IMG/VR virus record: IMGVR_UViG_3300009034_000863
Strand: one strand, 5' to 3'
Source of the DNA: an uncultured virus (IMG/VR IMGVR_UViG_3300009034_000863)
Lineage: Duplodnaviria > Heunggongvirae > Uroviricota > Caudoviricetes
DNA length: 64,000 bases
The notes below the pieces were generated by a model. The model was not told where the DNA came from, did no database searches, and was given only the letters and a program-made list of their open reading frames with translations. Below, piece after piece: positions 8,621-41,592 of this stretch. How positions within the stretch are numbered: position 1 is the first letter of the stretch; the number at the start of each line of letters is the position of its first letter. Position numbers and translations under genes: made by a program.

Positions 8621-8806
8621 GAGGTGTAATAGTGAAAATAGAAATAAATATCTCAACAGGGAATCCAGAGACAGATGCAAAGATAAAGGAGAGACTAGAG
8701 TCTGCAATTTATAATTGGTTACAAGATTATCTAGGAGTCAAGGTGAATGTCAGAGACTAGAATTATATATTTTCCTAGAACAACTGGGGAGACAATCTCC
8801 GTAACC

Positions 8807-8845
8807 TTTATAAAACAAGAAGTAGTTAATAATTAGAAGGTGTAA
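8807..8845 (+). promoter_or_regulatory. archaeal promoter for the replication operon
   Basis: TTTATAAA, downstream AT-rich element, AAGGTG SD. Confidence 0.55.
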
Positions 8846-8847
8846 GA

Positions 8848-9234: not shown

Positions 9235-9252
9235 AAATAAAATAAAGGAGGA

Positions 9253-23429: not shown

Positions 23430-24661
23430 TAACAGTATCTGTGTTTATGTCTGATCTACATTTATTCAGCGAGACACATGATCATGACGCATTCAATGAA
23501 TTTCTGGACAATGTATATTCAGTGGTATATTCTTACAAACAAGATAATGATAAGGTAACAGTTAAAATTTATTGTGTGGGAGACGTTCTATCTGGAGCTG
23601 AAGTATATGGTAAGTGGATGGGACAGCAAGCGTATGATGAAGTACTACAGGCTGTTTCTGCACAAACATTGGGTACAGCACACATTTTCAAGAAAATATC
23701 TAAGACTATTAATGAGATGACAGGTTTAGAACCTACATTTTATATTCTGAGAGGAACACATGAGAAAGTAAGAGGAGAAAACTTTGCATGGCAGTTGGTT
23801 ACTGAACTTCAAGCTTGTGGTCTTAAAGCTACTTATATGGGTACATGGAATACTGTAAAGATATGTGATAAACACTTTGTATTTGCTTGGCATTCTAGAG
23901 GAGGAGGAGTGTATGGGTATTCTGCTGGAGCCATTAGAGATTCTATGATGGCTTTACTTGAGAGACGAGACAATCCATATATTAAAGATGTTATTGTAGC
24001 ACATAGGCATGCTGCAGGTTTTATTGGAATGACCCAAGGATTTAGATTAATACAGCTTGGAGGATTCCAACAGTTTAATGGAGCACCAGCTCAGAGACAG
24101 ATGGGAGGATATCTTTATGTTTCTACTGAAGATGAACTGTTAGAAGACATGTTTGTTCTGGTGAATGCTACTGATGATCCAATGTTAGACATACATAATA
24201 AAGTAAGATTTGCAGAAATATTTAGAGATGCATGTGAGGAAGCAGTTAAGGAAGGTAGAATTACTATTAAAGATGAAGCTATAGAGACTCCAATTGTCCC
24301 TGAAATAATGAACAAAAGTAAGGTCTTTGGTTTCTATAATAAAGCTATAAAATATTATTATGACAATGTTCCTAACTACATAAATATACTTCTTAAATTG
24401 ACTAGGAAACATTACAATGAGAACGGGGAATCACTAATATCTCTGAAGATGTTGGAGGATGTATGGGATCCTGATCTCTCAGAAACATATAGTAGCTTCA
24501 AGAGATGGAAGTCATCGTCTTTTCATCTGTATAAAGGTACACCCAAACATGATCTCTCTAAAGCTAATGTGTGGCTTAGTCCCTTTGGAGTCAAATTAGT
24601 CTGGAGTAAAGTATTGAATGATATAGTGATCGTCTTGGATGAAGATAAATGGAAGAAGTAA
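23426..24661 (+). CDS. calcineurin-like metallophosphoesterase with C-terminal extension
   Basis: SDLH, VGD, GTHE, WH and AHRH motifs. Confidence 0.8.
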   Translation: MITVSVFMSDLHLFSETHDHDAFNEFLDNVYSVVYSYKQDNDKVTVKIYCVGDVLSGAEVYGKWMGQQAYDEVLQAVSAQTLGTAHIFKKISKTINEMTGLEPTFYILRGTHEKVRGENFAWQLVTELQACGLKATYMGTWNTVKICDKHFVFAWHSRGGGVYGYSAGAIRDSMMALLERRDNPYIKDVIVAHRHAAGFIGMTQGFRLIQLGGFQQFNGAPAQRQMGGYLYVSTEDELLEDMFVLVNATDDPMLDIHNKVRFAEIFRDACEEAVKEGRITIKDEAIETPIVPEIMNKSKVFGFYNKAIKYYYDNVPNYINILLKLTRKHYNENGESLISLKMLEDVWDPDLSETYSSFKRWKSSSFHLYKGTPKHDLSKANVWLSPFGVKLVWSKVLNDIVIVLDEDKWKK

Positions 24662-24803
24662 TAAAGATCAAGTGTCAAAAATGTGGTGCGTATATCAAGG
24701 AGAGTACTAGGGAAATCCTTGTAATAGATGGTGCAGTGTTACCAGTTTGTAAAAAATGTAAGAGACGATATATTAGAAACAGCAAGGGAGGTATAGTGGA
24801 ATA

Positions 24804-25113: not shown

Positions 25114-26487
25114 ATGTCTAGTAAATACAGTCCTTTCCTTCAAGATATTCGGAATCTGACTAAGAGGGATAAGCCTAGTAAAAAGACTATTAAACAATTA
25201 ATTAGGTCCTCTGGGGAGAGAGAAAGGCTACAGAAAGTAAAGAATCTAATTGATACTGCTACTGAAAGGATTGAAAGTAAGATCAAACCTAAAGTGTTTA
25301 GATTATTGTATCAGTCAGAAGAAACAGTCTTTGGATTGGTTAATAGGATAGATTTAGACGTTGTAGGTTCTGGTTTTATAATAATTCCTGATCCTGACAT
25401 TCCATCTGAGGATGAGAACTGGAAGAATATTGCTACTCAAGAGGCTGAGCTAGCTACTCAATGGTCTAATTCTAAATATATTAAACTTAAGTCTAAGGTT
25501 TCAATAGCCTTCACAGATTCACTGGTGTATGGAAGAGGGTTCTTAGAAATATGTTATAATGCCTTTAAGAATGATATTGTGTTAATTCATTCCGTTGATC
25601 CTGAAGACATGACATATTTAATGGATCCGACCAAAAGGGAAGTAAAACTCGATAAATATGGAATGCCAGTTGGTTATGTCTACAAAGAATATCAGGGTAA
25701 TAAACAGTTAAAGTTAATGAAGGATGAAGTAGCACACTTTAAGTTTTGGGGTCTAGGTGAACCGTCTATAGGTCTGAGTCCACTAGAACCATTATATAAT
25801 GTGTTAAAAGCCAAGATGAATATTGAAGAAGCATTAGCTGAAGCAATTTATAGAAGAGCATTTCCTTGGATTGTAGCATACGTTGGAGACAGAGATCATG
25901 AACCTTCTATTGAAGAAATAGATGAATTGCATGAAGCTATATCCGAGATAGAACAGAAGACAGAATTTACTCTGCCTTATTATTTCAAGTTGGACAAGAT
26001 AGAAGCAGGTGGACTACAGGAACTAGTTGGACATCATGAGATGTACACTAATTTAATATTTCATTCATATGGAATGCCTAAAGGTATAATGAAAGGTGGA
26101 AGGAAGACAGAAGTAGACAAGGGAAGTTTGGAGTGGGAAAGAACTGTTCTGAACTTTCAAGAGAAACTGGGTGAAATAATTCAGGAACAAATCCTTGACA
26201 GATTATATGAAGTCAGAGGATACAAGACAAGACCAAGAATCAAATGGAACATAGTTACTCCTGCTCATCAGATTACTTATGATAGGTCAATAGCTACATT
26301 ATACAGGCATGGAGCAATAAATCCAGATTTGGAATCAGAGAATTATCTGAGGAAGATGCATGGTTTACCTTTAAGATCAAGTGAGGTACCTCCAGAGAAA
26401 GAGGGTTTAAATGTCTTAGCAAAGAAGATCGCAGAATATATGACTCTGATGACTAAGTCAGAGACTGAAGGACCAGAAGAAGAATAG
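25114..26487 (+). CDS. portal protein
   Basis: DSLVYGRGFLEI, VDPEDM, DEVAHFK, GLSPLEP, YGMP and helical C-terminus; 457 aa. Confidence 0.88.
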   Translation: MSSKYSPFLQDIRNLTKRDKPSKKTIKQLIRSSGERERLQKVKNLIDTATERIESKIKPKVFRLLYQSEETVFGLVNRIDLDVVGSGFIIIPDPDIPSEDENWKNIATQEAELATQWSNSKYIKLKSKVSIAFTDSLVYGRGFLEICYNAFKNDIVLIHSVDPEDMTYLMDPTKREVKLDKYGMPVGYVYKEYQGNKQLKLMKDEVAHFKFWGLGEPSIGLSPLEPLYNVLKAKMNIEEALAEAIYRRAFPWIVAYVGDRDHEPSIEEIDELHEAISEIEQKTEFTLPYYFKLDKIEAGGLQELVGHHEMYTNLIFHSYGMPKGIMKGGRKTEVDKGSLEWERTVLNFQEKLGEIIQEQILDRLYEVRGYKTRPRIKWNIVTPAHQITYDRSIATLYRHGAINPDLESENYLRKMHGLPLRSSEVPPEKEGLNVLAKKIAEYMTLMTKSETEGPEEE

Positions 26488-26539: not shown

Positions 26540-28270
26540 TTGAAACAATTATCACTTAATGCTATCAATATCTTAAGGGAAAGATATTTAATAAAAGATG
26601 AGAATGGTGATGTAAAGGAAGATCCCATTTCTCTTTTTAAGAGAGTCTCTAAACAGATTGCTGAAGTAGAAAAGAAATATAATAAAAATGGGGAGTATAT
26701 TAAAGATTTAGAACAGAAATTTCTGAGTATGATGTCTAATCTAGAGTTCCTACCGAATTCGCCAACTCTAATGAATGCTGGTACATCTTTAAATCAATTA
26801 TCTGCTTGTTTTGTAATACCTATTTATGATAGTATGGAAAGTATATTTCAAGCAGTTAAAGATGCTTCTATAATTCATAAATCAGGTGGAGGTACAGGTT
26901 ATTCCTTTTCAAGGCTTAGACCTAAAGACGACTTAGTGAAAAGTACAGGTGGAATAGCTTCTGGACCAATATCATTCATGAGTGTATTTGATGCCGCTAC
27001 TAATGTGATCAAGCAAGGTGGTAGAAGAAGAGGAGCTAATATGGCTATATTGAGAGTTGATCATCCAGACATACTTGACTTTATAGTAGCTAAAGAGAAA
27101 GAAGGTATATTGTCTAATTTTAATCTATCAGTAGCAATTACAGATAAATTTATGAAAGCAGTAATCAATGATAAAGAATATGAGTTAATTAATCCAAGAA
27201 ATAATAAAGTTGTCAAGAAGATTAAAGCTAGAGCAGTATGGAATTTATTAATTACTATGGCTTGGAAGAATGGAGAACCAGGTGTAGTATTCATCGACAG
27301 AATAAACAAATATAATCCTACTCCTAGTCTAGGAGAAATAGAATCTACTAATCCTTGTGCTGAACAGCCATTGTTACCATATGAATCTTGCAATCTTGGT
27401 TCTATCAATCTAAGTAAAATGGTAGATGGAAACAGAGTAAGCTGGGTAAAATTGGAAGATACTATTTGTCTTGCTGTTAGGTTTCTAGATAATGTAATAG
27501 ATGCTAATTCTTATCCATTAACTCAGATAGCTAAAATGACTAGAGGTAATAGAAAGATTGGTCTAGGAGTAATGGGATTTGCTGATATGTTAATCAAACT
27601 AGGAATCCCATATAATTCTGAAAAAGCTATATTGTTAGCTAAGAAACTTATGAAATTTATTACTGATAAGGCTAAGTCGGCTTCTGAAGAGTTGGGTAAA
27701 GAAAAGGGATCATTCCCTAATTTCGATAATAGTACTTTTAATGGTAAACATAAAAATATGAGGAATGCTACAGTAACGACTATAGCTCCTACAGGAAGTA
27801 TCTCTATAATAGCTAACTGTTCTAGTGGTATTGAACCATTATTTGCTCTAGTTTATGTACGGAAACTAGCTGAAAGTATTGGTAGGGACTTGATTGAAAT
27901 TAATGAGATCTTTAAGGAATATTTAGTTGAAAGAGAATTATATTCTGAAGAGTTAATGAACAAGATATCTGCTTCTACTTCTATTCAGAACAGTGAATTG
28001 CCTAAAGATATTAAAGAATTGTTTATAGTAGCTCATGATATTACTCCAGAAGAACATATTAAAATTCAAGCTGCATTTCAACAGTACACAGACAATGCTG
28101 TAAGCAAAACAGTTAATTTCCCTAGTTCATCTACACTTGATGACATAGAGAATACATTCCTACTAGCTTATAATTCAGGATGTAAGGGAATAACTGTATA
28201 TAGAGACAAGTCTAGAAAGGTACAGGTATTAGATAGAATTGAAAGTGCATGTCCAATATGTGTGATATAA
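26540..28270 (+). CDS. nrdJ: class II (AdoCbl-dependent) ribonucleotide reductase
   Basis: PNSPTLMNAG, LSACFV, GGGTG, RRGANM, TNPCAEQ, CNLGS, IAPTGSIS, KGITVYRD, C-terminal CPIC. Confidence 0.96.
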   Translation: MKQLSLNAINILRERYLIKDENGDVKEDPISLFKRVSKQIAEVEKKYNKNGEYIKDLEQKFLSMMSNLEFLPNSPTLMNAGTSLNQLSACFVIPIYDSMESIFQAVKDASIIHKSGGGTGYSFSRLRPKDDLVKSTGGIASGPISFMSVFDAATNVIKQGGRRRGANMAILRVDHPDILDFIVAKEKEGILSNFNLSVAITDKFMKAVINDKEYELINPRNNKVVKKIKARAVWNLLITMAWKNGEPGVVFIDRINKYNPTPSLGEIESTNPCAEQPLLPYESCNLGSINLSKMVDGNRVSWVKLEDTICLAVRFLDNVIDANSYPLTQIAKMTRGNRKIGLGVMGFADMLIKLGIPYNSEKAILLAKKLMKFITDKAKSASEELGKEKGSFPNFDNSTFNGKHKNMRNATVTTIAPTGSISIIANCSSGIEPLFALVYVRKLAESIGRDLIEINEIFKEYLVERELYSEELMNKISASTSIQNSELPKDIKELFIVAHDITPEEHIKIQAAFQQYTDNAVSKTVNFPSSSTLDDIENTFLLAYNSGCKGITVYRDKSRKVQVLDRIESACPICVI

Positions 28271-28271
28271 A

Positions 28272-28469
28272 ATGCCAAGTCATGGGTCTTTAACTAAAGC
28301 AGGAAGAAACAAAAAACGTAGAGAGTTTAGAATGGTACAAGGAGAACATGGACATATGAAGCCTATGATGCATAAAAGAAAACATGATCATCCAGCATTA
28401 AGAAATAAGAAGAGATACTTTAAACATCTTAAGAACCAAGAGTTTAAATATAAAGAACCTAGGATCTAG
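28272..28469 (+). CDS. rps30e: ribosomal protein eS30 (S30e) homologue
   Basis: N-terminus MPSHGSLTKAG matches the archaeal eS30 signature; P-x-LRN-KKRY-K matches the C-terminal helix; small and basic. Confidence 0.85.
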   Translation: MPSHGSLTKAGRNKKRREFRMVQGEHGHMKPMMHKRKHDHPALRNKKRYFKHLKNQEFKYKEPRI

Positions 28470-28476
28470 ACATGTT

Positions 28477-28512
28477 TTTATAAGTCAGATCCTTTATATA
28501 TTCAGAGGTGGG
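28477..28512 (+). promoter_or_regulatory. archaeal promoter and SD
   Basis: TTTATAAG, then TTTATATA, then GAGGTG. Confidence 0.5.
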
Positions 28513-29081: not shown

Positions 29082-31850
29082 ATGCCTATATCTAAGAAAT
29101 ATTTGAAAACTTTACGAGGAATGTGTGAACAGTATTGCAACATTTCTAAATATGGTAATGATGGTAGGAGAGATAAATGGGTTCAAGGGGTACATACATG
29201 TCCTAAAGCAAGACAAGTATTTTATGCTACTATGAGGAAGAAGGGTATTGATTATAGACTACATAGTGAATTAATGGAATTACTTCACAGTAGATCAAAG
29301 TGTTTTGAATGTGATGAACCTCCAACAGTGGATATTTTATGGGCTAATGGTAAAGGTAGATGTTGGTTCTGTAGTAAACACTTTGAAGAATGGAAGAAGA
29401 AAAAGAATGATATGTCAGATACTGGTACTAACGAAGGAGATATAAATAAAGTCTATAAAGTTAAGGATGGTGAAGTACCTGAGAGATGGAGAGACTGGAA
29501 CTCCAAAATAGAATCTGACGATGTGGATCCTTTAAAACCACAGATATTTCCTGAGGCAGTAGAAACTTATATCAAAGATATTAAAGCGTTATCTAATTCT
29601 GAACTGGAATATTACCATGCTCTTTCTCATTCTAACAAACCTGAATTGTTCAGTGACTGGTGTAAAATACATTGGAAAGTATCTACAGAAATGTTAAGAA
29701 GAGACTATCCATACATGTTCAGGGAGAACTCTCACTGTGATAGAATAGTAGAGTGGACCATTAAGGACTGGAAAACTTATAGACCTAAGAACGTAAATGA
29801 TTCAGTCTTAAGAGATGACTGGAGAATAGTCAATGCTTGGTGGAAGAATATTCTGGCTAAGGGACAGAAAATGAAAAGTAAACAGTTTGAAAATTTCAAT
29901 TTAGAAAGACAGAAGGAAATAGTCAAGTCTTTAATGACATCTATTAGAAAAGAGATGGTACATAGAGGATGGGAGCCTCAGAAATTAATTGAACTTCCAC
30001 AAGAAAAGAGTGATCCTCATACTGAGAAGACAGAACCAGAGGTAACTGAATATCCCAGTCCTAAAGGATTTCCTGCTAAGAAACAATCTCTCAGTTGGGA
30101 AGAAATATCAGAAAAGGGATATATAACTATTGGAGATGTCCTTGGTTCTTTACCTGATCAGATGATAGTTAGAGACACAAGGGAAAAGCCAATGAGTATT
30201 TATCTAGTTGGTGAAATAGTCAATCACAAGAGGATACCCATTAATAATAATGTTGATATTCTATTCAAAGCAGACAATATAGATCCAAAATTAATGAGTA
30301 ATTTTCAGTCAAGTCTTCCAGACTGGTTGTCAGAAAGAATTAATCCAGTAATTAACAAAGACGGACCACAAACAGAGCATTCATTACTGATATATGAACC
30401 AGGGAACATATTCCTGCATCCTCCAAGAATATCTGATTCTATAACATTGGGTAAAGCATTCGTAGGTCTTAAAGCTAAGTCTGGATTTCATAAGTATGAA
30501 TTCTGGGACATTAATGAAGCGTATAATAAAGCAGTGTCTCAGTACATGAATAAAGGGTTAATTGTTGATAAGAAATATGATGGTAGAAGATTCCATATAC
30601 ACTATGACAAATTAAAGAATATTTTCAAGATAATTACAGAAGATAGACAGAGAGATAGATCAGAAGCATTGCCTTTCCTCTCTAAAGAGATTAAAAGTTT
30701 TCTAGAGAATAAGGAAATAAGAAATGTAATATTGGATTCTGAGGCAGTAGCATATAACTGTAGAGGTAAATCTGTAAAAGACAAAGAGGAACTATGTGAT
30801 TTCATAGATAGAGAGAATACTGTTTGGTTAAATGATGGACCCGTTTCTCAAGAACAGGAAGAATCAGTAGTATTTCACATCCATGACATTTTATATTTGA
30901 ATGATAAAGCTACTAACGAATTAGGATACTCTGACAGACAGAAATTATTTAACACTTTAATAGGTGAGGGAACTACTCATCTTAAAAGTGTAGAAAGCAC
31001 CAAAGTCTGCAACATAAAAGAATTTGTTTCAGCTGTTGAGAGAATGAGGTCTTCACATGGTTCTGAGGGAGTGATAGTAAAGTTAAGTGATAGTAAGTAT
31101 AGAATAAAATATTCTGGAGAGAATAGAACTGGAGAATGGATTAAGATAAAGAACCTTAAAGAACTAGATGTAATGGTATGGGATAGAGTACCTGTGAAGA
31201 AAAAGGGTACTGGAGAACTAACTGGAGCTTTCAGATATCTTTCCTTATTTGAGATTCCTGAGCAAGAGAAAAACAAGTTTAGACCTAATGATGTCATCGA
31301 ATACCAAGGTAAAACTTATGTGAAGATAGGTCTAACTTATGCTACCAACGAAAGGAATCAAAGAGGAGACATTATTAATGTCAGACAAGTGAGAGTTAGA
31401 AAGAACTTGGATAAAGATGGTAAAGTCTTCTACACTTGGATGTTCCCATATTACGCTGGTAAAAGAACAGATAAGAAAGAACCAGACACTTTGACTATAG
31501 TAGATAGGTTAGAAAGAATAGGTACTAAACCACTTGAAAGAAAGTCTCTAGAGATATGGTATAATAATTTATTTCAAGAACAGTTAACTTGCCACGGGAT
31601 CTTAAGTACTATAACAGATGAGAAACTTGAAGATTATTTGGATAATGATAATGTAACTATAGCTTTAAAGAAATGTCCTTTCTTTGAGAAAGAGAAGTTA
31701 TGTCCATTTAAGTCCAAGTTTGAAGGAGTGTATTTAACTAGAGTTTTAGAAGAAGATTTAGAACTCTCTGTAGACTGTCGCTTTACTGATATGTTCTTGT
31801 GTGGATACCTTAAAAAGTATTATTATCCACATAATGTTATAGAAGTGTAA
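29082..31850 (+). CDS. multidomain ATP-dependent DNA ligase
   Basis: KKYDGRR (motif I), ILDSE, IHDIL, EGVIVK, WIKIK and an OB domain; about 450-aa N-terminal extension. Confidence 0.88.
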   Translation: MPISKKYLKTLRGMCEQYCNISKYGNDGRRDKWVQGVHTCPKARQVFYATMRKKGIDYRLHSELMELLHSRSKCFECDEPPTVDILWANGKGRCWFCSKHFEEWKKKKNDMSDTGTNEGDINKVYKVKDGEVPERWRDWNSKIESDDVDPLKPQIFPEAVETYIKDIKALSNSELEYYHALSHSNKPELFSDWCKIHWKVSTEMLRRDYPYMFRENSHCDRIVEWTIKDWKTYRPKNVNDSVLRDDWRIVNAWWKNILAKGQKMKSKQFENFNLERQKEIVKSLMTSIRKEMVHRGWEPQKLIELPQEKSDPHTEKTEPEVTEYPSPKGFPAKKQSLSWEEISEKGYITIGDVLGSLPDQMIVRDTREKPMSIYLVGEIVNHKRIPINNNVDILFKADNIDPKLMSNFQSSLPDWLSERINPVINKDGPQTEHSLLIYEPGNIFLHPPRISDSITLGKAFVGLKAKSGFHKYEFWDINEAYNKAVSQYMNKGLIVDKKYDGRRFHIHYDKLKNIFKIITEDRQRDRSEALPFLSKEIKSFLENKEIRNVILDSEAVAYNCRGKSVKDKEELCDFIDRENTVWLNDGPVSQEQEESVVFHIHDILYLNDKATNELGYSDRQKLFNTLIGEGTTHLKSVESTKVCNIKEFVSAVERMRSSHGSEGVIVKLSDSKYRIKYSGENRTGEWIKIKNLKELDVMVWDRVPVKKKGTGELTGAFRYLSLFEIPEQEKNKFRPNDVIEYQGKTYVKIGLTYATNERNQRGDIINVRQVRVRKNLDKDGKVFYTWMFPYYAGKRTDKKEPDTLTIVDRLERIGTKPLERKSLEIWYNNLFQEQLTCHGILSTITDEKLEDYLDNDNVTIALKKCPFFEKEKLCPFKSKFEGVYLTRVLEEDLELSVDCRFTDMFLCGYLKKYYYPHNVIEV

Positions 31851-31862: not shown

Positions 31863-32555
31863 ATGATATTGAAGCAACATTATGATAAGTCAATTTATTT
31901 AATAAGAGAGGCAAGAGCAAAATACAAGAATCTAGGACTTTTCTGGGCTGGAGGCAAAGACAGTACTTTAATGTTGTATTTAACTAAAGAAGCATTGTAT
32001 GGTAAATTGCCTAAAGTGTTCTTTCTAAATACGACATACGCTTTTAGTGAAACTAAAGAGTTTTTAAGATTAGTTCAAGGCATTTGGAACTTTAAAGTTA
32101 TTCATTTGATGAATAGAGAAGCACTTTCTAAAGGAATGGATCCTTGGAATAATGATACTTTTGAATGTTGTGCTAAACTGAAAACTTTTATGATTATTGA
32201 TTGTGTTGAAAAATATAATATGGATGCTTTAATGTTTGGAATTAGATGGGATGAACACCCAATAAGAGGAAAAGAAACTTATTACAGTTTTAGAGATACT
32301 CCTGAACATATGAGAATTCATCCTATATTGCATTGGTCAGAAGAAAATGTTTGGAGATTTACTAAACATTATAATATTCCATACAATTCTTTATATGATA
32401 GAATAGTAGATGGTAAAAGATATACTTCACTTGGATGTTATCCATGTACTGTACCAATATCTAAGGAAGAACATCTAGAACTAGGAGAAAGAGGAGGACG
32501 TACAATAGATAAGAAAAAAAGAATGGAGAGAGCAAGAGCATTGGGGTATTGTTAA
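31863..32555 (+). CDS. PAPS/APS reductase - sulfate adenylyltransferase subunit 2 (CysH/CysD) family
   Basis: PP-loop AGGKDS, ECC..K, GIRWDE..R, RIHPILHW, YTSLGCYPCT, ERGGR..DK..MER..ALGY. Confidence 0.88.
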   Translation: MILKQHYDKSIYLIREARAKYKNLGLFWAGGKDSTLMLYLTKEALYGKLPKVFFLNTTYAFSETKEFLRLVQGIWNFKVIHLMNREALSKGMDPWNNDTFECCAKLKTFMIIDCVEKYNMDALMFGIRWDEHPIRGKETYYSFRDTPEHMRIHPILHWSEENVWRFTKHYNIPYNSLYDRIVDGKRYTSLGCYPCTVPISKEEHLELGERGGRTIDKKKRMERARALGYC

Positions 32556-33211
32556 TGGACAATATCATTATAGAAAAATGTAAGAATTCCTTTGAGGTGT
32601 ATCGTAATTATTATAAATATTTGTCTTTTAAAGAGAAGCAAGAAATAATTCAGCATTATCATGTATTATACCCTTATCAACAACATCATCATACTGGATA
32701 TTTTAGATTGTCTTTCTTAATTATTAAACATGAATTTCAGAGTATTCTTAAAGTAATAGAATTTGGTGCATTCGATGGAAAGTTAGCTTGGAAAATATTA
32801 AAAGATAATCCTGAGATAGAATGGAATGGCTATGACATTTCTCATGTTGTAATCAATAAGATGGAACATGGTTTAAAAAAATTGAAATATACTCCACATT
32901 ATCTAAATAAAGAATTGTGGGAATTAAATATAGATCCTTCTGCATTTAATGTTTTTGTCTCATCTCATTCTTTAGAACATATTTCTAACAAAGAACTTTT
33001 AGAATTGATGAAATGGATAAATGGAGTTAAATATATGATAATCCAAGTTCCTTTAAGCAAGGACTGGAAGAATTATCCAGGATGTCATCACATGACTTTT
33101 GAAAGGAATGATTTAGAAAAGATATTGTATGATTACAAAATTATATTAGAGACTGGAAATCTGTTTTGGTTATTAAAATATGATAAAGGTGAAGATATTG
33201 AGTTTTCATAA
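32549..33211 (+). CDS. class I SAM-dependent methyltransferase
   Basis: VIEFGAFDG, GYDIS, SHSLEHI. Confidence 0.75.
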   Translation: MLMDNIIIEKCKNSFEVYRNYYKYLSFKEKQEIIQHYHVLYPYQQHHHTGYFRLSFLIIKHEFQSILKVIEFGAFDGKLAWKILKDNPEIEWNGYDISHVVINKMEHGLKKLKYTPHYLNKELWELNIDPSAFNVFVSSHSLEHISNKELLELMKWINGVKYMIIQVPLSKDWKNYPGCHHMTFERNDLEKILYDYKIILETGNLFWLLKYDKGEDIEFS

Positions 33212-33707
33212 ATATAATCCTAGAACATCTTATACTGAAGAATATTTCAAGAGAGCTACTAGGACTACTGGAGGATGGGATGATTATTTGAAACAATATC
33301 CTGAACCAATGCTTGAACTAGGATGTTCTGATGGAGAATGGGTAGAGAAATTAAAAGGTAAAAAGAAAGAAGTGTATGGATTAGAATTATCTGATTATTG
33401 CTTTACTATTCGTAAAACAAAATTGATGATCAAAGCTGATGCTCATATTTTACCTTTCAAAGATGAATCTTTTGGTTCTATCTATTCTTTTCAATTGTTA
33501 GAACATTTAAGTGCTCCAGATAAATGTCTAAGAGAATGTAAAAGAGTATTGGTACTTAACGGTTATTTTCTAGCTAAGTGGGGATATGGTGCTGGAGATG
33601 ATACTCATGTCTCTGATTTTGGAAATCAATGGATAGGTATTATTGGGAAATATTTTAAACATATCAAAGCTGATTGGGGATGTTTTGTGTATATGAAGGT
33701 GAAATAA
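33180..33707 (+). CDS. SAM-dependent methyltransferase (type 11)
   Basis: LELGCSDG, ADAHILPFKDESF, LEHL, LRECKRVL. Confidence 0.85.
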   Translation: MIKVKILSFHKYNPRTSYTEEYFKRATRTTGGWDDYLKQYPEPMLELGCSDGEWVEKLKGKKKEVYGLELSDYCFTIRKTKLMIKADAHILPFKDESFGSIYSFQLLEHLSAPDKCLRECKRVLVLNGYFLAKWGYGAGDDTHVSDFGNQWIGIIGKYFKHIKADWGCFVYMKVK

Positions 33708-34573
33708 TGAGAGATTTAATGATTCTGTGTATTGATGGTATGGATGCTATTCTAGCTAGTAAATGCAAGCTAGAATTTCTAAGAAGTATAGGAGAAATCC
33801 AGAAAGTAAGGACTTTAGGAGATACTCCTGAAACTGTGTCGCTAGTATGTTCCCATAAAGCAATAGAGATGCCTGTCTTAAAGAATTTTGATATAGATAA
33901 TAAATTTCTTTTATGGAACAGGATATTCTGCAAATGGGGAATAGGTAATATCCCAACTGTTCCTGCATTGAAGATATTTGGGTGGTCAATAGCAGGATAT
34001 TTTAGACCTGAAGGAGAACTTGCATATCCTCCTTATGTAAATGGTTATTTAGATTCAATTAATTATGAAGTTGATATTCCAGTTATGATGGGAGAATATG
34101 TTAATTCTCATATTCATTATGATAGGATAGTTCCTAAGAGAACTAAGGCATTTAATTTTTTACTAAGGGAATATCCAGTTGATATTGCTTTCTTATGGTA
34201 TAGATGTCTAGATGGTATAAATCATGAATATTGTATAGGAAAAAGGGATATCAATAGTATTTATGACTGGTATGAAAGGTTAGACCAAGAAATCAGTAAA
34301 TTAGATTTAGATTTTAAAGAAATATTAATTTTTTCTGATCATGGTGTACCTTCATACAGTGGAATCTTTAAAGAAATAGAAGATCAACCTCATAGAAAAG
34401 ACGGAATATTTCTTAATAATAAAGATTACAAAATTGAACATTTGAAAGAGGTTTATCCCCTTGTCCTTAAGATAGCAGAAAAGTATAATTTATATTCTTC
34501 TAATGACATAAAAGATATAGAAGAAAAAGAGAGGATAACAAATAAGTTAAGAAAATTGGGAATATTGGAATGA
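33674..34573 (+). CDS. alkaline phosphatase superfamily (phosphodiesterase/sulfatase-like)
   Basis: ILCIDGMD, LDGINH, FSDHG, H..DGIF, C-terminal I..KLRKLG. Confidence 0.8.
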   Translation: MGMFCVYEGEIMRDLMILCIDGMDAILASKCKLEFLRSIGEIQKVRTLGDTPETVSLVCSHKAIEMPVLKNFDIDNKFLLWNRIFCKWGIGNIPTVPALKIFGWSIAGYFRPEGELAYPPYVNGYLDSINYEVDIPVMMGEYVNSHIHYDRIVPKRTKAFNFLLREYPVDIAFLWYRCLDGINHEYCIGKRDINSIYDWYERLDQEISKLDLDFKEILIFSDHGVPSYSGIFKEIEDQPHRKDGIFLNNKDYKIEHLKEVYPLVLKIAEKYNLYSSNDIKDIEEKERITNKLRKLGILE

Positions 34574-34576
34574 TTT

Positions 34577-35533
34577 ATGAATATTGTAATATTAGCTAAT
34601 TTCAATTCTGGAGGAATCTTTGGTACTTTAGCTAAGGCTATTAATGAATACACTGAACATCATGCTGATTATTTACTTAAGAAAAGGCATAAGTACAAAT
34701 TTGATTATGACATATGTGAAACTATGGGATGGAAGAGAGAAGATGGTAGGACCTTTGATCAACAAGAAATACATAAGATATTAAATAATGCTGATGTGAT
34801 ACATAGAAACATTTGTGCTGGTACCTTCTCTCATATATTTGGAGTACCAGTAGAACCTTACATAAAGAAAGTTAAGAAAAGGGCATATCACTTCTCAGGT
34901 TATGAACTTCGAGGGAAGCCAGGAAGATGGGACCATTTAGATGGTATTAAGATAGTTGACAATCTTGACCTTCTACAATATGTCAATAAAGGTCACTGGC
35001 TTCCTAATCCTACTCCTACTAATAATCCGAAGTTTATGCCTGATCCTTTTAGGTCGATTTATACACTAAGATTCTGTACTGACATTTCAGTACCTTCACA
35101 GTGGGGAGGACATAAAGGACTTAGTTTGTTCAGTGAAATAGTAAAATCTAAGATTAGAAAATATAGGAACAATGTCAGTTTAGATGTCATTCAGGAAGTA
35201 ACTAGAGATGAATGTCTAGCGAGAAAAAGGATATGTCATGTGTATGCTGGAGAATTGTTCTTACCTAACTATGAGAACTCTGTTCTTGAATGTGCAAGTC
35301 AGGGATTAGTAATTATTAATAAACCAATTTTAAATCCTGAAATCTATAATGATCCCCCATTTGTGTTCATAGAGAAAAAGAAGTTGGATTCTACTATAGA
35401 AAAATTGATTAATACTCCTATGAAAGAAATATTCAAGTTGGGTAAGGAAACTAGGAAATGGTGTGAATCATTCCATAGTGATAAAGTGGTAGTAAAGAAA
35501 CTAATAAAATTATATGAGGAATATGATAAATGA
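34577..35533 (+). CDS. glycosyltransferase (GT-B like)
   Basis: HFSG..LR, WLPNP, HKG, YENSVLECASQG, R.W...FH. Confidence 0.7.
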   Translation: MNIVILANFNSGGIFGTLAKAINEYTEHHADYLLKKRHKYKFDYDICETMGWKREDGRTFDQQEIHKILNNADVIHRNICAGTFSHIFGVPVEPYIKKVKKRAYHFSGYELRGKPGRWDHLDGIKIVDNLDLLQYVNKGHWLPNPTPTNNPKFMPDPFRSIYTLRFCTDISVPSQWGGHKGLSLFSEIVKSKIRKYRNNVSLDVIQEVTRDECLARKRICHVYAGELFLPNYENSVLECASQGLVIINKPILNPEIYNDPPFVFIEKKKLDSTIEKLINTPMKEIFKLGKETRKWCESFHSDKVVVKKLIKLYEEYDK

Positions 35534-35721
35534 GAAAAGAAGGATGTACTAAATGTTGTTGGTGTGGATTTGATTATGGCACTACTGAATTTGATATAGA
35601 TATATGTCTTATTCATGCTTGTACAGGAGAAGAACAGGGAGCTGTACAATGTCCTGAACAAGAAAAATGTTGGGGAGAAGAACTTAGATTATGGTTAAAA
35701 AGAATGGAAAAAGAAAGTTAA
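35530..35721 (+). CDS. small Cys-rich protein
   Basis: CTKCCWC and further Cys residues. Confidence 0.5.
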   Translation: MRKEGCTKCCWCGFDYGTTEFDIDICLIHACTGEEQGAVQCPEQEKCWGEELRLWLKRMEKES

Positions 35722-36149
35722 ATCTAGGATCTGGTAAAGACTATAGACATGGCTATGTAAACATAGAGAAGAACGAAAAACTCAAAGCAGATATTCACTT
35801 GGATTTAGAATCAGATAGATTACCGTTTAAGGATAATTCTGTCGATTATATTTTAATGAATCATACCTTAGAACATGTTACAAATATTGTTCATGTTTTA
35901 AACGAATGTCATAGAGTCTTGAAGAAAGATGCTCATTTAGAAGTTCAGGTACCTAATGTAGCTCATCCACAAGGTATAGTAGCTGCTTTTGGAGATATAT
36001 TTCATGTACGGTTCTTTAGTCCTTTTACATTTACAATGCTGGCTGGAAGTTCAGATGATTATAGATTTAACAATCTTAAACCTTGGAATCTTTTAAGACT
36101 AAAATCTACTCAGAATATTATAGCTATTCTGTCTCCTAGAAAAGAGTAG
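35691..36149 (+). CDS. SAM-dependent methyltransferase (type 11)
   Basis: KLNLGSG, LPFKDNSVD, HTLEH, NECHRVLK. Confidence 0.88.
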   Translation: MVKKNGKRKLNLGSGKDYRHGYVNIEKNEKLKADIHLDLESDRLPFKDNSVDYILMNHTLEHVTNIVHVLNECHRVLKKDAHLEVQVPNVAHPQGIVAAFGDIFHVRFFSPFTFTMLAGSSDDYRFNNLKPWNLLRLKSTQNIIAILSPRKE

Positions 36150-36190
36150 GATATATAAACAAGAAAAGAGATAAAATAAGAGGAAGTATT

Positions 36191-37294
36191 ATGAGAATTG
36201 GAATGTGTCTTGGTGTAAGACCAGACTGGATAGATAATTCATTGCTTATAAAAGAACTTGATAAATGGTTAGGAAAAGACTTTACTCTTATTCATTCAGG
36301 TCAACATTATTCATACAATATGAATAAGATATTCTTTGATGAACTAAGAATTAGAAAACCAGATTATTTCTTAGACATTGGAAGTGGTACTCAAGGATAT
36401 CAGGCTGGAGAGACAATTAGAAAATCTGAAGCAATATTCTTGAAGAAAAAGGTAGACCTAGTAATAGCGTTTTCAGATGCTAATCCAGCTTTAAGTTGTA
36501 TTGGAGCAGCCAAAAATAATATCAAAGTAGCACATCTAGAAGCAGGGATGAGAGCATGGGATTGGAGAATGCCTGAAGAAAAGAATAAGAGAATGATAGA
36601 TTCTATCTCTGATTATTTCTTTACACCAACAAATCTGTCTTGTCAGAACCTTTTGAATGAAGGTGTGTACAAACCTAAAATATTTATTGTGGGTAAACAA
36701 GTCATAGATGTTCTGGAATATTATTCAAAGGATATAGAAAGGTCTCAGATTATGGATAAACTTAACTTAGATATAGAAGAATATTTTCTGGTCACAGCTC
36801 ATAGACCAGAGAATGTTGAAAACAGAAATAGTCTAGAGAATATCATTAAAGCCTTAAATAAAATCTCTGAATATCATGATCTGCCAGTGATATTTCCTGC
36901 TCATCCTAGAACTCAAGCTGCTCTAAAAAGATGGGGTATTAAATTAGAAAAGGGAATAAGATTAATGGACTATCTAGGATTTCTAGACTTTTCTAAACTA
37001 GAAATGAATGCATTATGTTTACTAACAGATTCTGGGACAGTTGAAGAAGATGGATGTTGGTTTAGAGTACCTTGTGTCACTTTTAGAATCAGTACTGAGA
37101 GACCTGAGACAGTACATTGTGGATCAAACATAGTAGTTGGTACTGATTATAGGAATATCATTAAAGGTGTCAAAGAAATGATAAGAAGACCTTCTAACTG
37201 GAACTGTCCTTACTATTTGGGAGCTACTGATAACATTTTATATGTCTTGAGAAGTGAAGAAGAAAATATATTAAAGGAAAAGGTATGGTGGTAA
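36191..37294 (+). CDS. wecB: UDP-N-acetylglucosamine 2-epimerase (non-hydrolysing)
   Basis: GVRPD, HSGQHY, HLEAGMR, PEE.N, HRPEN, HPRT, TDSGT.EE, TERPET. Confidence 0.93.
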   Translation: MRIGMCLGVRPDWIDNSLLIKELDKWLGKDFTLIHSGQHYSYNMNKIFFDELRIRKPDYFLDIGSGTQGYQAGETIRKSEAIFLKKKVDLVIAFSDANPALSCIGAAKNNIKVAHLEAGMRAWDWRMPEEKNKRMIDSISDYFFTPTNLSCQNLLNEGVYKPKIFIVGKQVIDVLEYYSKDIERSQIMDKLNLDIEEYFLVTAHRPENVENRNSLENIIKALNKISEYHDLPVIFPAHPRTQAALKRWGIKLEKGIRLMDYLGFLDFSKLEMNALCLLTDSGTVEEDGCWFRVPCVTFRISTERPETVHCGSNIVVGTDYRNIIKGVKEMIRRPSNWNCPYYLGATDNILYVLRSEEENILKEKVWW

Positions 37295-38277
37295 TGAAAT
37301 CTTTAAAGGTTTTAGTAACTGGTGGAGCAGGATATCTTGGGTCAGTTCTGACAAGACAATTATTGAAAGAGAACTATGAAGTATGTGTAATGGATAATTT
37401 TATGTATGGATTCAATGCTATATCAGGTCTTAAAGCTAACTTTAAAATAATGGATGTGAGGAACACAGATAAAGACGATATTGAAAACTTTAATACTATT
37501 GTTCATCTTGCTTCCATAGTCGGAGATAATGCTTGTGATTTAGATCCTAAAGAGACAGTTAAAATCAATTATGAGTCCACAAGGAACTTAGCAGAATTAT
37601 GCAATGATTTAGATAAGCATTTGATATTTACTTCAACATGTTCAGTATATGGAAGGAATCCTGATAAAATCTCAAAAGAAGATGATCAGATAGTTAATCC
37701 ATTAAGTCTTTATGGTGAAACTAAACTAAAATCTGAAAGAGGAATTGAGAAATCAGGATGTAAAAGTACTATCCTTAGACTTGGTACTTTATTTGGTCTA
37801 AGTTATAGAATGAGATTTGATCTAGCTATTAACTTATTTATTGCACAAGCGTATCTAGGAGAAACTCTTAATATATTTGGAGGACAACAGATTAGACCAT
37901 TTTGCCATGTAAAAGATACTGTTTTATTTATTATGAAAGTAATCAAGGAACAGTTAGAAGGTAAATACAATGTTGCTTGGAAAAATATTAAGATCAAAGA
38001 CGCTGCTTACAATATAGCTGAACTGTTAGATGGAAAGTGTAAAATTAATAAAGATATCACAGATGAAAGGAACTATAAGATTGATATTAACAAGATGATT
38101 GATACTGGCTTTAAACCCAAGAGAACTATTGACTATGCTTGTGGTGAAATATCGTCTGCTTATAATCTAGGAAAATTACAGTACTATAAAAATAGGATGT
38201 ACAGTAATTACAAGTCTCTATTTGAGAATGAGAATTTAATGAAGATGGTATATACTCAAGGACCAATTTGGAAGTAA
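37285..38277 (+). CDS. NAD-dependent sugar epimerase/dehydratase
   Basis: TGGAGYLG, STCSVYG, YGETK, RFDL..N. Confidence 0.92.
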   Translation: MVVMKSLKVLVTGGAGYLGSVLTRQLLKENYEVCVMDNFMYGFNAISGLKANFKIMDVRNTDKDDIENFNTIVHLASIVGDNACDLDPKETVKINYESTRNLAELCNDLDKHLIFTSTCSVYGRNPDKISKEDDQIVNPLSLYGETKLKSERGIEKSGCKSTILRLGTLFGLSYRMRFDLAINLFIAQAYLGETLNIFGGQQIRPFCHVKDTVLFIMKVIKEQLEGKYNVAWKNIKIKDAAYNIAELLDGKCKINKDITDERNYKIDINKMIDTGFKPKRTIDYACGEISSAYNLGKLQYYKNRMYSNYKSLFENENLMKMVYTQGPIWK

Positions 38278-38281
38278 TATT

Positions 38282-39025
38282 ATGAAAATGTTAATTACTG
38301 GAGCAAGTGGGAAGTTAGGAACAGAATTAGCCAAACTATTTCCTGGTGCCATAACACCATCTCATAAAGAAATGGATATAACAGATCCAAACCAAGTCAA
38401 TTATTACTTAAAAAACAAGATTGAAGTTGTTGTTCATTTAGCAGCTTTAACGTCTCCTCCTATTTGTGAAAGAAACAAGGAATTAGCTTGGAAGACTAAT
38501 GTGGTAGGTACTACAATATTAATTCAATTATGTCAATTATTTAATGTTAATAAATTTATACTTATGTCTACTCCATGTGTTTTTAATGGTGATGATGAAA
38601 CTCATAAGAAAGAATGGCATCGTTTAGATCCTGATAATTATTATGGGTTTACCAAAGCTATTCAAGAAACTTTAGTTATAGGATCAAACTTGGAATATCT
38701 TATTATAAGAGGGAACTTCATATCATACAAGAAATATCCATATCCTAGGGCATTTACAGATAGATATTCCAATTATCTATTTGCTCATCAACTGGCAAAA
38801 GGAATTAAAGATGCAATAGAATTTGAAGATTATGGAATAATTCATATATTAGGAGACAAAATAATTTCTATGTATGAATTAGCTAAGAGATGTCCTGACA
38901 GTGAAGATGTTAAGCCTTATACTTTAAAGGAGTATTATATGGAACATTCCGATTCTCCTAAACTAACTAAAAATATGGTATTAGAATCTACTAGATGGAG
39001 AAAATATGATATAGGTGAAATATGA
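38282..39025 (+). CDS. dTDP-4-dehydrorhamnose reductase (RmlD)-like SDR
   Basis: TGASGKLG, DIT, HLAA.T, NV.GT, ST..VF.G, YGFTK. Confidence 0.85.
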   Translation: MKMLITGASGKLGTELAKLFPGAITPSHKEMDITDPNQVNYYLKNKIEVVVHLAALTSPPICERNKELAWKTNVVGTTILIQLCQLFNVNKFILMSTPCVFNGDDETHKKEWHRLDPDNYYGFTKAIQETLVIGSNLEYLIIRGNFISYKKYPYPRAFTDRYSNYLFAHQLAKGIKDAIEFEDYGIIHILGDKIISMYELAKRCPDSEDVKPYTLKEYYMEHSDSPKLTKNMVLESTRWRKYDIGEI

Positions 39026-39945
39026 TGAAAATATTAATAACTGGAGTAGGAGGATTCGCTGGTCTTAATTTTCTAAATTACTTTTCTATAGATCATGATG
39101 TAATAGGAACATATGATCCAATGAACAGTAAATGGCTTAAAATTCTGAAGAAAGCATTTAAAGGTATTAAAATACATGAATTAAACATTAGATTTCCAAA
39201 TGCTATTGGTCATATATTGAAAAGAGATGTGGATGTAATTATTCATGAAGAAGCATTGATTCATGCACCACAATCTGTTGAGAAACCTAGATTGTACCAT
39301 GATTTTAATGTTAATGGATTCTTTAATATTCTTGAATGTGCTAGAGAATACAATACTAAAGTGGTGTGTGTTGGAAGTAATATTTCATATGGAGAACCAG
39401 TTTATAGACCAATAGATGAGAACCATCCTCAAAACCCTAACAGTCCTTATGGAGCTTCTAGAGTGTGTCAAGAAAAATATGCTTTGTCTTATTATCACAC
39501 CTTTGATTTACCAGTTATAGTTCTCAGGTATTCTAATTTGTATGGTCCTTATGGAGAGGGAGTGATCAATTCATTTGTTAAGAATGCACTTAAATTGAAT
39601 CACATATTTATTACTGGAGGAAAACAGACCAGAACATACACTCATATAGAAGACGCAGCCAAAGCAACAGAATTAGCAATTAAATCTAAGAAGGCGATAG
39701 GAGAAATTTATAATGTATCAGGAGATGAAACAGTAGATCTGATATTTCTTTCAGATATAATTAAAGGAAACTTTCCTGATATTGAAATAAAATATTATGA
39801 TAACTGGAAGGGAGATATATTGTCGGATCAATATGAGATAAGTAATAAGAAAATTAAAACTGATCTAGGTTTTAAACCAGAATACAATTTAGATATAGGA
39901 ATAAAAGAGGTGATAGAATGCACAAAATTTCAGTTTTCAATATAG
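39022..39945 (+). CDS. NAD-dependent sugar epimerase/dehydratase
   Basis: TGVGGFAG, PNSPYGASR (YxxxK changed to YxxxR), RYSNLYGP, QTRTY. Confidence 0.9.
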   Translation: MMKILITGVGGFAGLNFLNYFSIDHDVIGTYDPMNSKWLKILKKAFKGIKIHELNIRFPNAIGHILKRDVDVIIHEEALIHAPQSVEKPRLYHDFNVNGFFNILECAREYNTKVVCVGSNISYGEPVYRPIDENHPQNPNSPYGASRVCQEKYALSYYHTFDLPVIVLRYSNLYGPYGEGVINSFVKNALKLNHIFITGGKQTRTYTHIEDAAKATELAIKSKKAIGEIYNVSGDETVDLIFLSDIIKGNFPDIEIKYYDNWKGDILSDQYEISNKKIKTDLGFKPEYNLDIGIKEVIECTKFQFSI

Positions 39946-40640
39946 TTAGTCAAGCAGTAGACTTACTAGATTTTTCTACTAAGTATGCAATGTTAAATGC
40001 TGGAATGCCTTTCAATTATGTCCTCATACTATGGAATCCTAGTAAGGAAGTATTAGACTGGATAGAAAATAAGAATTATGAGAAATATTCAAATATAAAT
40101 ATTGATTTCTATCACTTTTTCTATTATACTAATGAAGGATTAAACTTCATACAAAATTTAAGAAATTGTTTTAATAAAGGATTTGAGGAATGTTTTAAAT
40201 TGACAGAGTATGCATGTGGAATAAACACTGACATGATGTTTTACTCTAACTGGTTGATCAATCTCTATAAGTACAGAGACAAGAACTCAATCATTAATTG
40301 TAGACAGATAGAACCTAAACCTACAGAACATCATGAAGTCATGGACTTTGGTATGGCAGGAGAAGACTTCCCAGTAGAAGAATACTTAGAATTTTGTTCA
40401 CAGATATATGAGGATAAAGTCATTACAGAAGAGGAATGGCAGGGACCTTGGGCTGATGCTACTCCACACCTTATGCATAAGTCTGTGTGGGAAAAGTACG
40501 GTCCTTGGAGAGTTAAAATAGTAGCAGATATAGATTTTTTCAGAAGAGCTACTGGAGATGGAATAAAGAATATGAAAAGTCTAGGAAGTATTGTGTACCA
40601 TGCAGGAGCACAAGAAACAAAAAGAAGGAGGATGAGGTAA
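39918..40640 (+). CDS. glycosyltransferase (GT-A like)
   Basis: NKGF, INTDMMF..NWL.NL, DIDFF, SIVYH; paralogous to 40867. Confidence 0.75.
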   Translation: MHKISVFNIVSQAVDLLDFSTKYAMLNAGMPFNYVLILWNPSKEVLDWIENKNYEKYSNINIDFYHFFYYTNEGLNFIQNLRNCFNKGFEECFKLTEYACGINTDMMFYSNWLINLYKYRDKNSIINCRQIEPKPTEHHEVMDFGMAGEDFPVEEYLEFCSQIYEDKVITEEEWQGPWADATPHLMHKSVWEKYGPWRVKIVADIDFFRRATGDGIKNMKSLGSIVYHAGAQETKRRRMR

Positions 40641-40910
40641 TTGGTAGAAGTATTAAAATTAGGGGACCTAATAGATAGGCTCATTATAACAAACATAAAG
40701 ATACACTATTATAATCATCAGAAACTAGATGAGAGAAAGAAAGAGAACCCAGACTATGAACTGTTAAATGAGATACAGACTAAAGTAGACACCATAAATG
40801 AAATGAGAGTATCTTTAAGGAATGAAATAGATAAATTATTTAAACGAGTAATAACTACAGGTATCTATGATGTTAGAGAGGAAAAGAGAACCTATGATAA
40901 GCATATCTAG
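40641..40910 (+). CDS. DUF4254-like helical protein
   Basis: LGDLIDRL.I.NIKI...N..R..L..EID. Confidence 0.6.
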   Translation: MVEVLKLGDLIDRLIITNIKIHYYNHQKLDERKKENPDYELLNEIQTKVDTINEMRVSLRNEIDKLFKRVITTGIYDVREEKRTYDKHI

Positions 40911-41592
40911 TTTGATATATAAATCAATTGAATATCTTGAATTCCTTATAGATAGTCTAAATGAGTACACACCTAAATTGCACACAGGGGAAGCAGAACT
41001 CTATTTTGTAAGTTACAATGCTACTCCTGAAATTCTAGATTATATGAAGAGACACAAGATTCCAAATTATATCGTAAAAGGAAAATATGTTGGCTATCCT
41101 CAGTCAACATATGGTTTTTACAAAGCATTTAATTATTGTGTTGAAAAAGCTAAAGGAGACATAGTTGTTCTATTAAACAGTGATATGGCGTTCTCTCCTG
41201 ATTGGCTAGAAAACTTACTTAAATATTTAAACAAAGACAGATTAATAACTAGTAGACTTGTGGAATCTGGAAATTTAAGATCAACCTTTCCTCATACTCT
41301 AGTAAAAGACTTTGGAAGATCTCCGAGTACCTTTAAAGAAAAAGAGTTCTTGGAATATGCTGAAAAGGTAAAGCAAGAAGGTATTTCTCAAGGAGGAACA
41401 TTCATGCCTGTTGCAATCTATAAAGACGTTTTTGTTAAGACAGGTGGATATCCTCTAGGAAATGTTGGTAACATGGGTGGAGACTATTATTATTTTGAAT
41501 ATATTCTGAAACCATCTGGAGTGATTCATTATACCTCTTTTGATTCTATAGTATATCATATTCAGATGGGAGAAGTACATGCCAGAGTTTAG
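40867..41592 (+). CDS. glycosyltransferase family 2
   Basis: AFN..V..AKGDIVVLLNSDM..SPDWLENL, GD..F, SIVYH. Confidence 0.85.
   Translation: MMLERKREPMISISSLIYKSIEYLEFLIDSLNEYTPKLHTGEAELYFVSYNATPEILDYMKRHKIPNYIVKGKYVGYPQSTYGFYKAFNYCVEKAKGDIVVLLNSDMAFSPDWLENLLKYLNKDRLITSRLVESGNLRSTFPHTLVKDFGRSPSTFKEKEFLEYAEKVKQEGISQGGTFMPVAIYKDVFVKTGGYPLGNVGNMGGDYYYFEYILKPSGVIHYTSFDSIVYHIQMGEVHARV

Follow-up and report, generated by a model that had tools for sequence, protein, structure and literature searches.

The locus considered here raises the question whether a tailed virus encodes a genuine archaeal ribosomal protein eS30 and, if so, for what use. It lies in a stretch of 64,000 nucleotides from an uncultured virus (IMG/VR record IMGVR_UViG_3300009034_000863), referred to below in its full length as the window. 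The first-pass annotation had described a basic protein of 65 amino acids that starts with MPSHGSLTKAG and is encoded one nucleotide past the stop codon of a ribonucleotide reductase (RNR) gene. Coordinates and translation agree with this description: the RNR gene ends with TAA at 28268-28270 and, after a gap of one base, the ATG of the open reading frame (ORF) follows at 28272, with the stop codon TAG at 28467-28469. The deduced protein carries the tail M-P-S-H-G-S-L-T-K-A-G at its N-terminus and the segment H-P-A-L-R-N-K-K-R-Y-F-K-H-L toward its C-terminus, and it is strongly basic, with an isoelectric point of 11.1 and 20 lysine and arginine, seven histidine and five methionine residues. 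Since an in-frame TGA (28263-28265) is located upstream of the ATG, a longer reading frame is excluded. The 65-codon ORF is a genuine gene.

The assignment to eS30 is carried by profile comparisons. The NCBIfam model NF006817 (30S ribosomal protein S30e) matched the ORF with an E-value of 2.8e-6, residues 1-56 being aligned with positions 1-45 of the 52 positions of the profile. A search of the PDB with the single sequence yielded three matches at E <= 10, two of which were archaeal S30E chains, namely 9fhl_e (E 0.0092, ORF residues 1-51 against 1-40) and 9e71_Ba (E 0.26), and the third an unrelated phosphoprotein (E 0.18). For the comparison with cellular proteins, a reference set of 26 eS30 genes of named Thermoproteota-type genomes was taken from among the matches listed. 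This set comprises 11 genes from Bathyarchaeia or Bathyarchaeota, two from Nitrososphaerota or Nitrososphaerales and 13 of the Thermoprotei type; Asgard archaea are not covered, and an eS30 search in 14 control genomes gave no Asgard match. When an alignment of ten viral copies (A2) was compared by hhalign with that of the 26 cellular sequences (A3), a probability of 99.3% and an E-value of 2.3e-20 were obtained, with the N-terminus dominating the match. With the A2 profile as query, all 59 PDB matches at E <= 1 were chains named by their depositors as eS30 or FUBI-eS30, the best of them being the archaeal chain 9fhl_e, of which residues 1-47 were aligned with profile positions 1-61 at E 1.2e-11, leaving one gap of 14 residues. 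Moreover, 29 of the 30 matches in a feature search of the ESM Atlas were PF04758 clusters, and the second match was a cluster of 71-amino-acid proteins with 82 members that is labelled 87% viruses. The structure-based rows of the Atlas, with TM scores of about 0.5 or less on an Atlas model of pLDDT 0.33, were disregarded. A PHROGs search of the ORF returned no family, and tblastn searches of 50,697 GenBank phage records with the ORF and with the capsid protein of the window gave no match.

The eS30 signal extends beyond the first eleven residues, which are identical to those of the Saccharolobus eS30 in 9fhl_e (11/11). With these residues removed, positions 12-65 alone scored 15.2 bits against the profile of the 26 cellular sequences, a value reached by none of 2000 shuffled sequences (best 11.0), and the match aligned H-K-R-K-H-D-H-P-A-L-R-N-K-K-R-Y-F-K-H-L with the P-R-x-R-N-R-x-x-Y helix region. 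The same test gave 11.0 bits for the corresponding gene of L001, an independent IMG/VR contig of 55.7 kb, with two of 2000 shuffles scoring higher, and 4.3 bits, which is not significant, for the relative P0002. The profile and structure-database matches together provide good support for the ORF being a divergent but true homolog of archaeal eS30, although it remains below curated family cut-offs.

Sixteen positions are invariant in all 26 cellular eS30 sequences (P2, H4, G5, S6, L7, K9, A10, G11, K12, V13, R14, Q16, T17, P18, R33 and N34). Ten of them are present in the viral protein, comprising the complete set of eight tail positions and the arginine and asparagine of the helix, and so is the near-invariant proline that precedes this helix (Pro41); residues P41, R44, N45 and Y49 of the viral protein align with the profile of the C-terminal P-R-x-R-N-R-x-x-Y helix. 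The segment in between is remodelled and longer, as had been proposed from inspection of the sequence: none of the six invariants of the central K-V-R-x-Q-T-P motif is present, positions 12-18 reading R-N-K-K-R-R-E, and 29 residues separate G11 from the conserved proline, as against 18 in each of the 26 cellular copies. The 11 extra residues occur in none of these named cellular sequences. An AlphaFold2 model computed from 31 related sequences that are described below (mean predicted local distance difference test (pLDDT) score 75.8) contains a helix at residues 4-10, strands at 20-23 and 29-32 and a helix at 41-61, the two strands representing a predicted beta-hairpin formed by the inserted segment. 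A control model of a cellular eS30, based on the 26-sequence alignment (pLDDT 76.2), contained two helices (9-16 and 30-47) and was free of strands.

A survey of IMG/VR for viral eS30 genes with similar inserts, which had been suggested as a check, detected five viral contigs with eS30-like genes (L001-L005), and word-indexed and exhaustive protein searches revealed close relatives with identities of 98% (P0001), 57% (P0002) and 41-46% (P0003-P0005). In a profile search of 5.8 billion proteins, 33 clusters with lengths of 56-79 amino acids (E 1e-21 to 4e-8), none of them bearing an organism name, outranked canonical S30e, the first canonical protein of that name (53 amino acids) being detected at E 7e-8. 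For the comparison of these long forms, 23 of the 33 best clusters and six lower-ranked rows were retrieved. An alignment of 31 long forms revealed P2, H4, G5, L7, K9, G11 and P41 as invariant and H38 as nearly so, and an aromatic-arginine pair, represented by F19-R20 in the window, as typical of the family, whose members otherwise share 25-57% identity. The proteins of the window and of L001 and the protein P0002 each have exactly 65 amino acids, at only 42-57% identity. The window protein thus displays the hallmarks of the group, comprising the insertion site, the aromatic-arginine pair, a K/x-H-x-x-P motif, the invariant tail and a viral context. Most long forms retain G-K-V-R and some of them Q-x-P-K, neither of which is found in the clade of the window, P0001, P0002, L001 and P0005; the G-Q-N/R-W tail that some long forms have in common with eS30 of the Bathyarchaeia and Nitrososphaerota type is likewise missing from this clade. 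As judged from these alignments, the remodelled middle is a hallmark of a wider 'long eS30' family rather than a peculiarity of the window virus. The family was found only in virus-like contexts, as compared with a named cellular set without Asgard genomes.

A pattern scan of metagenomes yielded 64 loci, including 53 eS30 genes with canonical spacing, which entered the scan through H-x-x-P in their tails, ten long forms and one fusion-like ORF. Five of the ten long forms are the sequences of IMG/VR loci, with no nucleotide differences in the four pairs checked. The fusion-like ORF (L093:79-216, minus strand) consists of the N-terminal half of a canonical eS30 followed by unrelated sequence and could have arisen by fusion or by chimeric assembly. 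The phylogeny with cellular eS30 that the first-pass annotation had called for was informative in part: in a tree of 68 rows and 54 columns, with part of the insert columns included, a well-supported clade of Thermoprotei (SH-aLRT 96) contains no long form, but 36 of the 65 inner branches remained open. This mostly unresolved tree is compatible with a single origin of the long forms.

Two further settings of long eS30 genes were observed in metagenomes. In a subgroup of 70-amino-acid proteins, the gene stands beside a eukaryote-type DNA topoisomerase IB (Topoisom_I, 1e-53; L058:2007-3629 and L077:16-993), and the neighbors also include a ClpP-type head maturation protease (phrog_94) and a nucleoside 2-deoxyribosyltransferase. 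The contig L065 (67.5 kb, GC content 0.35) carries a long eS30 of 68 amino acids (P0030, about 8001-8207, minus strand) and, at a distance of about 1.3 kb, an ORF (9476-10021, minus strand) that scored 118.6 bits with the NCBIfam model of uL16 (NF003239, cut-off 91), so that a single element contains two ribosomal protein genes. The other genes of L065 are mostly unknown ORFs on one strand, in addition to ParB-like, metallophosphatase and Anp1 genes, and the viral nature of this contig is unproven; a search for uL16 in four IMG/VR records found nothing.

The genomic setting of the window gene is that of a tailed virus. All ORFs of at least 150 codons are located on the plus strand over the entire 64 kb, and the GC content varies between 30 and 38% in 2-kb intervals. 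Besides the portal protein, the window encodes a major capsid protein of the HK97 type, a protein resembling a tail tube, another of more than 1,800 amino acids resembling a tape measure, and a protease. Further genes specify a family B DNA polymerase (PolB), a DNA methylase, RNR and an ATP-dependent DNA ligase, and a long block is devoted to sugar-modifying enzymes. At the eS30 locus, the gene order is portal, RNR, eS30-like gene, phrog_1084 protein and DNA ligase. The same order was found in L001, with protein identities of 67% for the portal protein, 84% for RNR, 42% for eS30, 52% for the phrog_1084 protein and 55% for the ligase. Three of four IMG/VR records with an eS30-like gene contain relatives of the window portal protein (G004, G005 and G007), with identities of 31% in the record of L002 and 34% in that of L005, the latter being a complete viral genome of 120.7 kb with terminal repeats; no such relative was detected in the record of L003. 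The portal gene at the locus marks the window as part of a tailed virus, and the portal relatives link it to other viruses with a long eS30. Viral or archaeal-viral genes are present on the contigs L001-L005. Since L003 carries a homolog of TFIIB, it can be regarded as an archaeal virus, and in L058 a head maturation protease gene accompanies the long eS30. A copy with canonical spacing (L095) is located among cellular genes, and cellular housekeeping neighbors were not seen around the window gene.

The known biology of eS30 defines what the viral protein might do. The protein is limited to TACK and Asgard archaea, being one of three small-subunit proteins common only to these archaea and eukaryotes, and it is located in the messenger RNA (mRNA) entry channel, where it contacts h16 and where Pro2 touches h44 beside the A site, as described in the available text of PMC11698992. 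In eukaryotes, a conserved histidine of the tail stabilizes codon-anticodon pairing, and the initiation factor eIF1A meets residues 2-8 of eS30 (PMC11698992). The position at the mRNA entry channel and decoding site and the phylogenetic range given in the first-pass annotation agree with this source. A functioning viral eS30 would accordingly imply a host among the TACK or Asgard archaea. Cellular RNRs show 62-67% identity to the viral enzyme, and the seven organism-named relatives among the 120 matches listed belong to Aenigmarchaeota (four) and to Bathyarchaeota or Bathyarchaeia (three), so that these relatives point to both groups as candidate hosts. Transfer RNA genes were not found in the 64-kb window.

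With respect to function, we give about an even chance to the reading that the viral long eS30 acts at the eS30 site of the host small subunit, replacing the host protein or exchanging with it. The argument rests on the tail and on the helix behind the proline, both of which are kept across a family that is otherwise only 25-57% identical, a pattern that is hard to explain without contact to the ribosome. The viral protein would be synthesized along with RNR from the portal-RNR-eS30 unit during infection of a TACK or Asgard host and would attach to the 30S subunit of the host in the region of the shoulder and the mRNA entry channel, either replacing host eS30 in new subunits or exchanging into existing ones. 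The invariant tail would occupy the same place beside h44 and the A site as the tail of cellular eS30. Near h16 and the mRNA entry, the surface would be altered by the hairpin specific to the viruses, and this altered surface would bias initiation or mRNA loading toward viral messages or adapt the ribosomes to infection. The retuning of host ribosomes suggested at first inspection may thus occur. A more far-reaching version, in which a lineage of large archaeal tailed viruses has long kept and reshaped eS30 and the hairpin turns ribosomes into 'viral' ones with a preference for viral messages or a resistance to host shut-off, is put forward tentatively and is to be regarded as doubtful. If it holds, a virus would for the first time be seen to have remodelled the site of a eukaryote-type ribosomal protein in archaea, and the rapid change of the hairpin region would be a sign of adaptation to particular hosts or of an arms race.

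Several observations count against a role as a ribosomal protein. The HMM search that had been recommended gave a match with the NCBIfam model and none with Pfam, where no family, including Ribosomal_S30, matched the ORF at E <= 1, and even the NCBIfam score of 27.1 bits does not reach the curated cut-off of 75. If the lost central motif is needed for binding of ribosomal RNA (rRNA), the viral protein may not bind like eS30. Aenigmarchaeota, to which most of the named RNR relatives belong, are outside the lineages stated to have eS30. A Foldseek search of the PDB with the viral AlphaFold model returned no match at E <= 0.001, which should carry little weight, as this outcome is expected for an extended model of 65 residues. 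A further objection comes from the ratio of nonsynonymous to synonymous substitution rates (dN/dS), which was estimated by the Nei-Gojobori method between the window and L001 and is rough, since dS values of 0.8-1.4 are near saturation and the gene has only 65 codons. The eS30-like gene yielded 0.63 overall, the ratio being 0.09 in codons 1-12 and rising to 0.84 in codons 13-65, compared with 0.10 for RNR, 0.17 for portal, 0.18 for ligase and 0.35 for the phrog_1084 gene. These values suggest a clear contrast between a strongly constrained tail and a remainder that appears as a scaffold of conserved positions, otherwise freely changing, and the constraint on this body is much weaker than would be expected of a cellular ribosomal protein. 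The near-neutral residues 13-65 weaken the idea of a snugly fitted ribosomal core, and they would fit relaxed constraint and rapid adaptation alike.

Among the alternatives, an exapted nucleic-acid binder survives best. A protein of eS30 ancestry without the job of eS30 could, for instance, serve in compacting or escorting the DNA or RNA of the virus or be packaged with the genome, and its high content of lysine and arginine, the portal gene at the beginning of the unit, the loss of the central rRNA-type motif and a body evolving as if only charge mattered would be in line with such a use. A polycation, however, needs no exact tail, and the invariance of P2, H4, G5, L7, K9 and G11 in all 31 long forms, the low dN/dS of codons 1-12 and the eS30 pattern retained in the C-terminal helix make this explanation unlikely.

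The kept tail and altered body also have the look of a competitive binder, and the protein might be an inhibitor or decoy that is directed to the eS30 site or to a factor reading the tail, such as aIF1A, and halts host translation. According to the available text of PMC6375957, ribosomes with a viral bS21 were about 5% active in vitro, and the contact of eIF1A with the tail in eukaryotes (PMC11698992) would offer a target. The virus nevertheless needs host ribosomes for a large proteome (about 136-kb contig), and no toxin-like or regulated context was seen, and we regard an inhibitor as decidedly unlikely.

Only a small probability is assigned to a decaying or nearly neutral passenger gene that was captured long ago from a host. 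Such a gene would account for the highest dN/dS of the five genes compared, for the missing central motif and for scores under the family thresholds; it is opposed by the intact length of exactly 65 amino acids in three diverged copies, by the conservation of the aromatic residue 19, H38, P41 and the tail over 31 sequences and by the persistence of the gene in viruses whose portal proteins have diverged to 31-34% identity. Although genes for ribosomal proteins are a classic sign that a contig is contaminated with cellular DNA, a mis-assembled piece of host DNA or a cellular contig taken for a virus is very unlikely, almost to the point of dismissal, because of the single coding strand, the even GC content, the surrounding viral genes, the start of eS30 one nucleotide after the stop of a viral RNR gene in an order repeated in the independent contig L001, the insertion-free cellular copies and the lack of housekeeping neighbors, all of which identify the locus as viral rather than chimeric.

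The preferred reading, action at the eS30 site of host ribosomes, can be compared with known cases. The window protein shares with cellular archaeal eS30 (NF006817, PF04758; 9fhl_e of Saccharolobus solfataricus, PMC11698992) the tail, the proline, the R-N-x-x-x-Y helix and the small, basic character; it differs in the missing central motif, the 11 additional residues, the modelled hairpin, the viral coding and the faster evolution. The virus-encoded ribosomal proteins known so far come mainly from phages and are of bacterial type; for archaeal viruses, L21e and bL19 are the only ones named in the available text of PMC10541130. A viral bS21 enters Escherichia coli ribosomes (Mizuno et al. 2019, PMC6375957), and the window gene resembles the phage bS21 and bL12 genes described there in being a gene for a small peripheral ribosomal protein in a tailed virus for which replacement of the host copy can be envisaged. 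In contrast to the phage proteins, it is of archaeal and eukaryotic type, has an insertion that extends through its whole family and is very different from the host form. In the available text of PMC6375957, eS30 appears only for a murine retrovirus with fau in antisense orientation, the other cases being bacterial-type proteins in phages. Before bL19, no ribosomal protein other than L21e had been known in archaeal viruses, according to the available text of the study on Bathyarchaeia viruses (PMC10541130), and these genes are likewise single ribosomal protein genes in archaeal tailed viruses, whereas eS30 is another protein at another subunit site and the term 'S30' is absent from that text. 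In a full-text search of the literature, no archaeal virus with eS30 was encountered; papers or supplements beyond the search might hold such a report. The window gene is a fast-evolving viral variant within the virus-encoded ribosomal proteins, a kind already known. The series of viral eS30 proteins with kept tail and anchor helix and exchanged middle provides natural probes of the function of the eS30 middle, and the long eS30 represents a testable case of viral control over an archaeal, eukaryote-like ribosome.

The features of the locus are compiled in Table 1. The short distance between RNR and eS30 indicates that both genes are probably part of one transcription unit, and their translation may be coupled. 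The hairpin across the eS30 stop codon possibly marks the end of this unit, and TTTATATATT and GAGGTG resemble an archaeal TATA box and a Shine-Dalgarno-like site of the next unit. Unlike these two elements, the hairpin is not obviously kept in L001. The placement of eS30 among late genes, as stated in the first-pass annotation, applies to the portal gene upstream; RNR, the phrog_1084 gene and the DNA ligase gene also adjoin, and the region is better described as a mixed block.

Table 1. Features of the eS30 locus of the window.
Feature	Position	Strand	Basis
Portal protein	25114..26487	+	phrog_9232, 4.5e-14
Class II-type ribonucleotide reductase	26540..28270	+	Pfam Ribonuc_red_lgC, E 1.6e-140
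Long eS30 gene, 65 amino acids	28272..28469	+	Sequence, profile matches, basic composition
N-terminal tail, codons 1-11	28272..28304	+	Equals residues 1-11 of 9fhl_e; Pro2 and His4 kept
Remodelled middle, codons 12-40	28305..28391	+	K-V-R-x-Q-T-P lost, 11 residues more; F19 R20, H38
Pro41 and C-terminal helix (P-A-L-R-N-K-K-R-Y...), codons 41-65	28392..28466	+	Aligns with cellular P-R-x-R-N-R-x-x-Y helix
Hairpin across eS30 stop codon	28461..28493	+	About -15 kcal/mol (-14.9), z -2.45
TTTATATATT then GAGGTG	28493..28510	+	Both recur 3' of the eS30-like gene in L001

Some properties of neighboring genes and of related viruses were noted in addition. The window RNR (576 amino acids) is devoid of the ATP-cone domain (PF03477), a feature of nearly all its closest relatives with lengths of about 700 amino acids, and the domain is likewise missing from two close viral relatives (84% and 78% identity). 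In the protein of 922 amino acids encoded at 29082-31850, the ATP-dependent DNA ligase domain covers residues 480-690, and the cysteine-rich N-terminal half of about 470 residues, which matched no family, is conserved in L001 (55% identity overall). A region of about 14 kb (32549-46423) encodes methyltransferases, glycosyltransferases, a UDP-GlcNAc 2-epimerase and several NAD-dependent sugar epimerases or dehydratases; this glycan-synthesis module is unusually large for a virus, and a similar set is present in L002. Between a 411-amino-acid ORF and the portal gene, a zinc-ribbon ORF of 51 amino acids (24649-24801) weakly matched the N-terminal part of the archaeal multiprotein bridging factor aMBF1, with an E-value of 2.4e-5 and a score well short of the cut-off. 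Finally, in the 136-kb archaeal virus L003, whose eS30 has only a short insertion, the DNA methylase gene (8186-10000) is split by an intein-like segment with LAGLIDADG and Hint matches.

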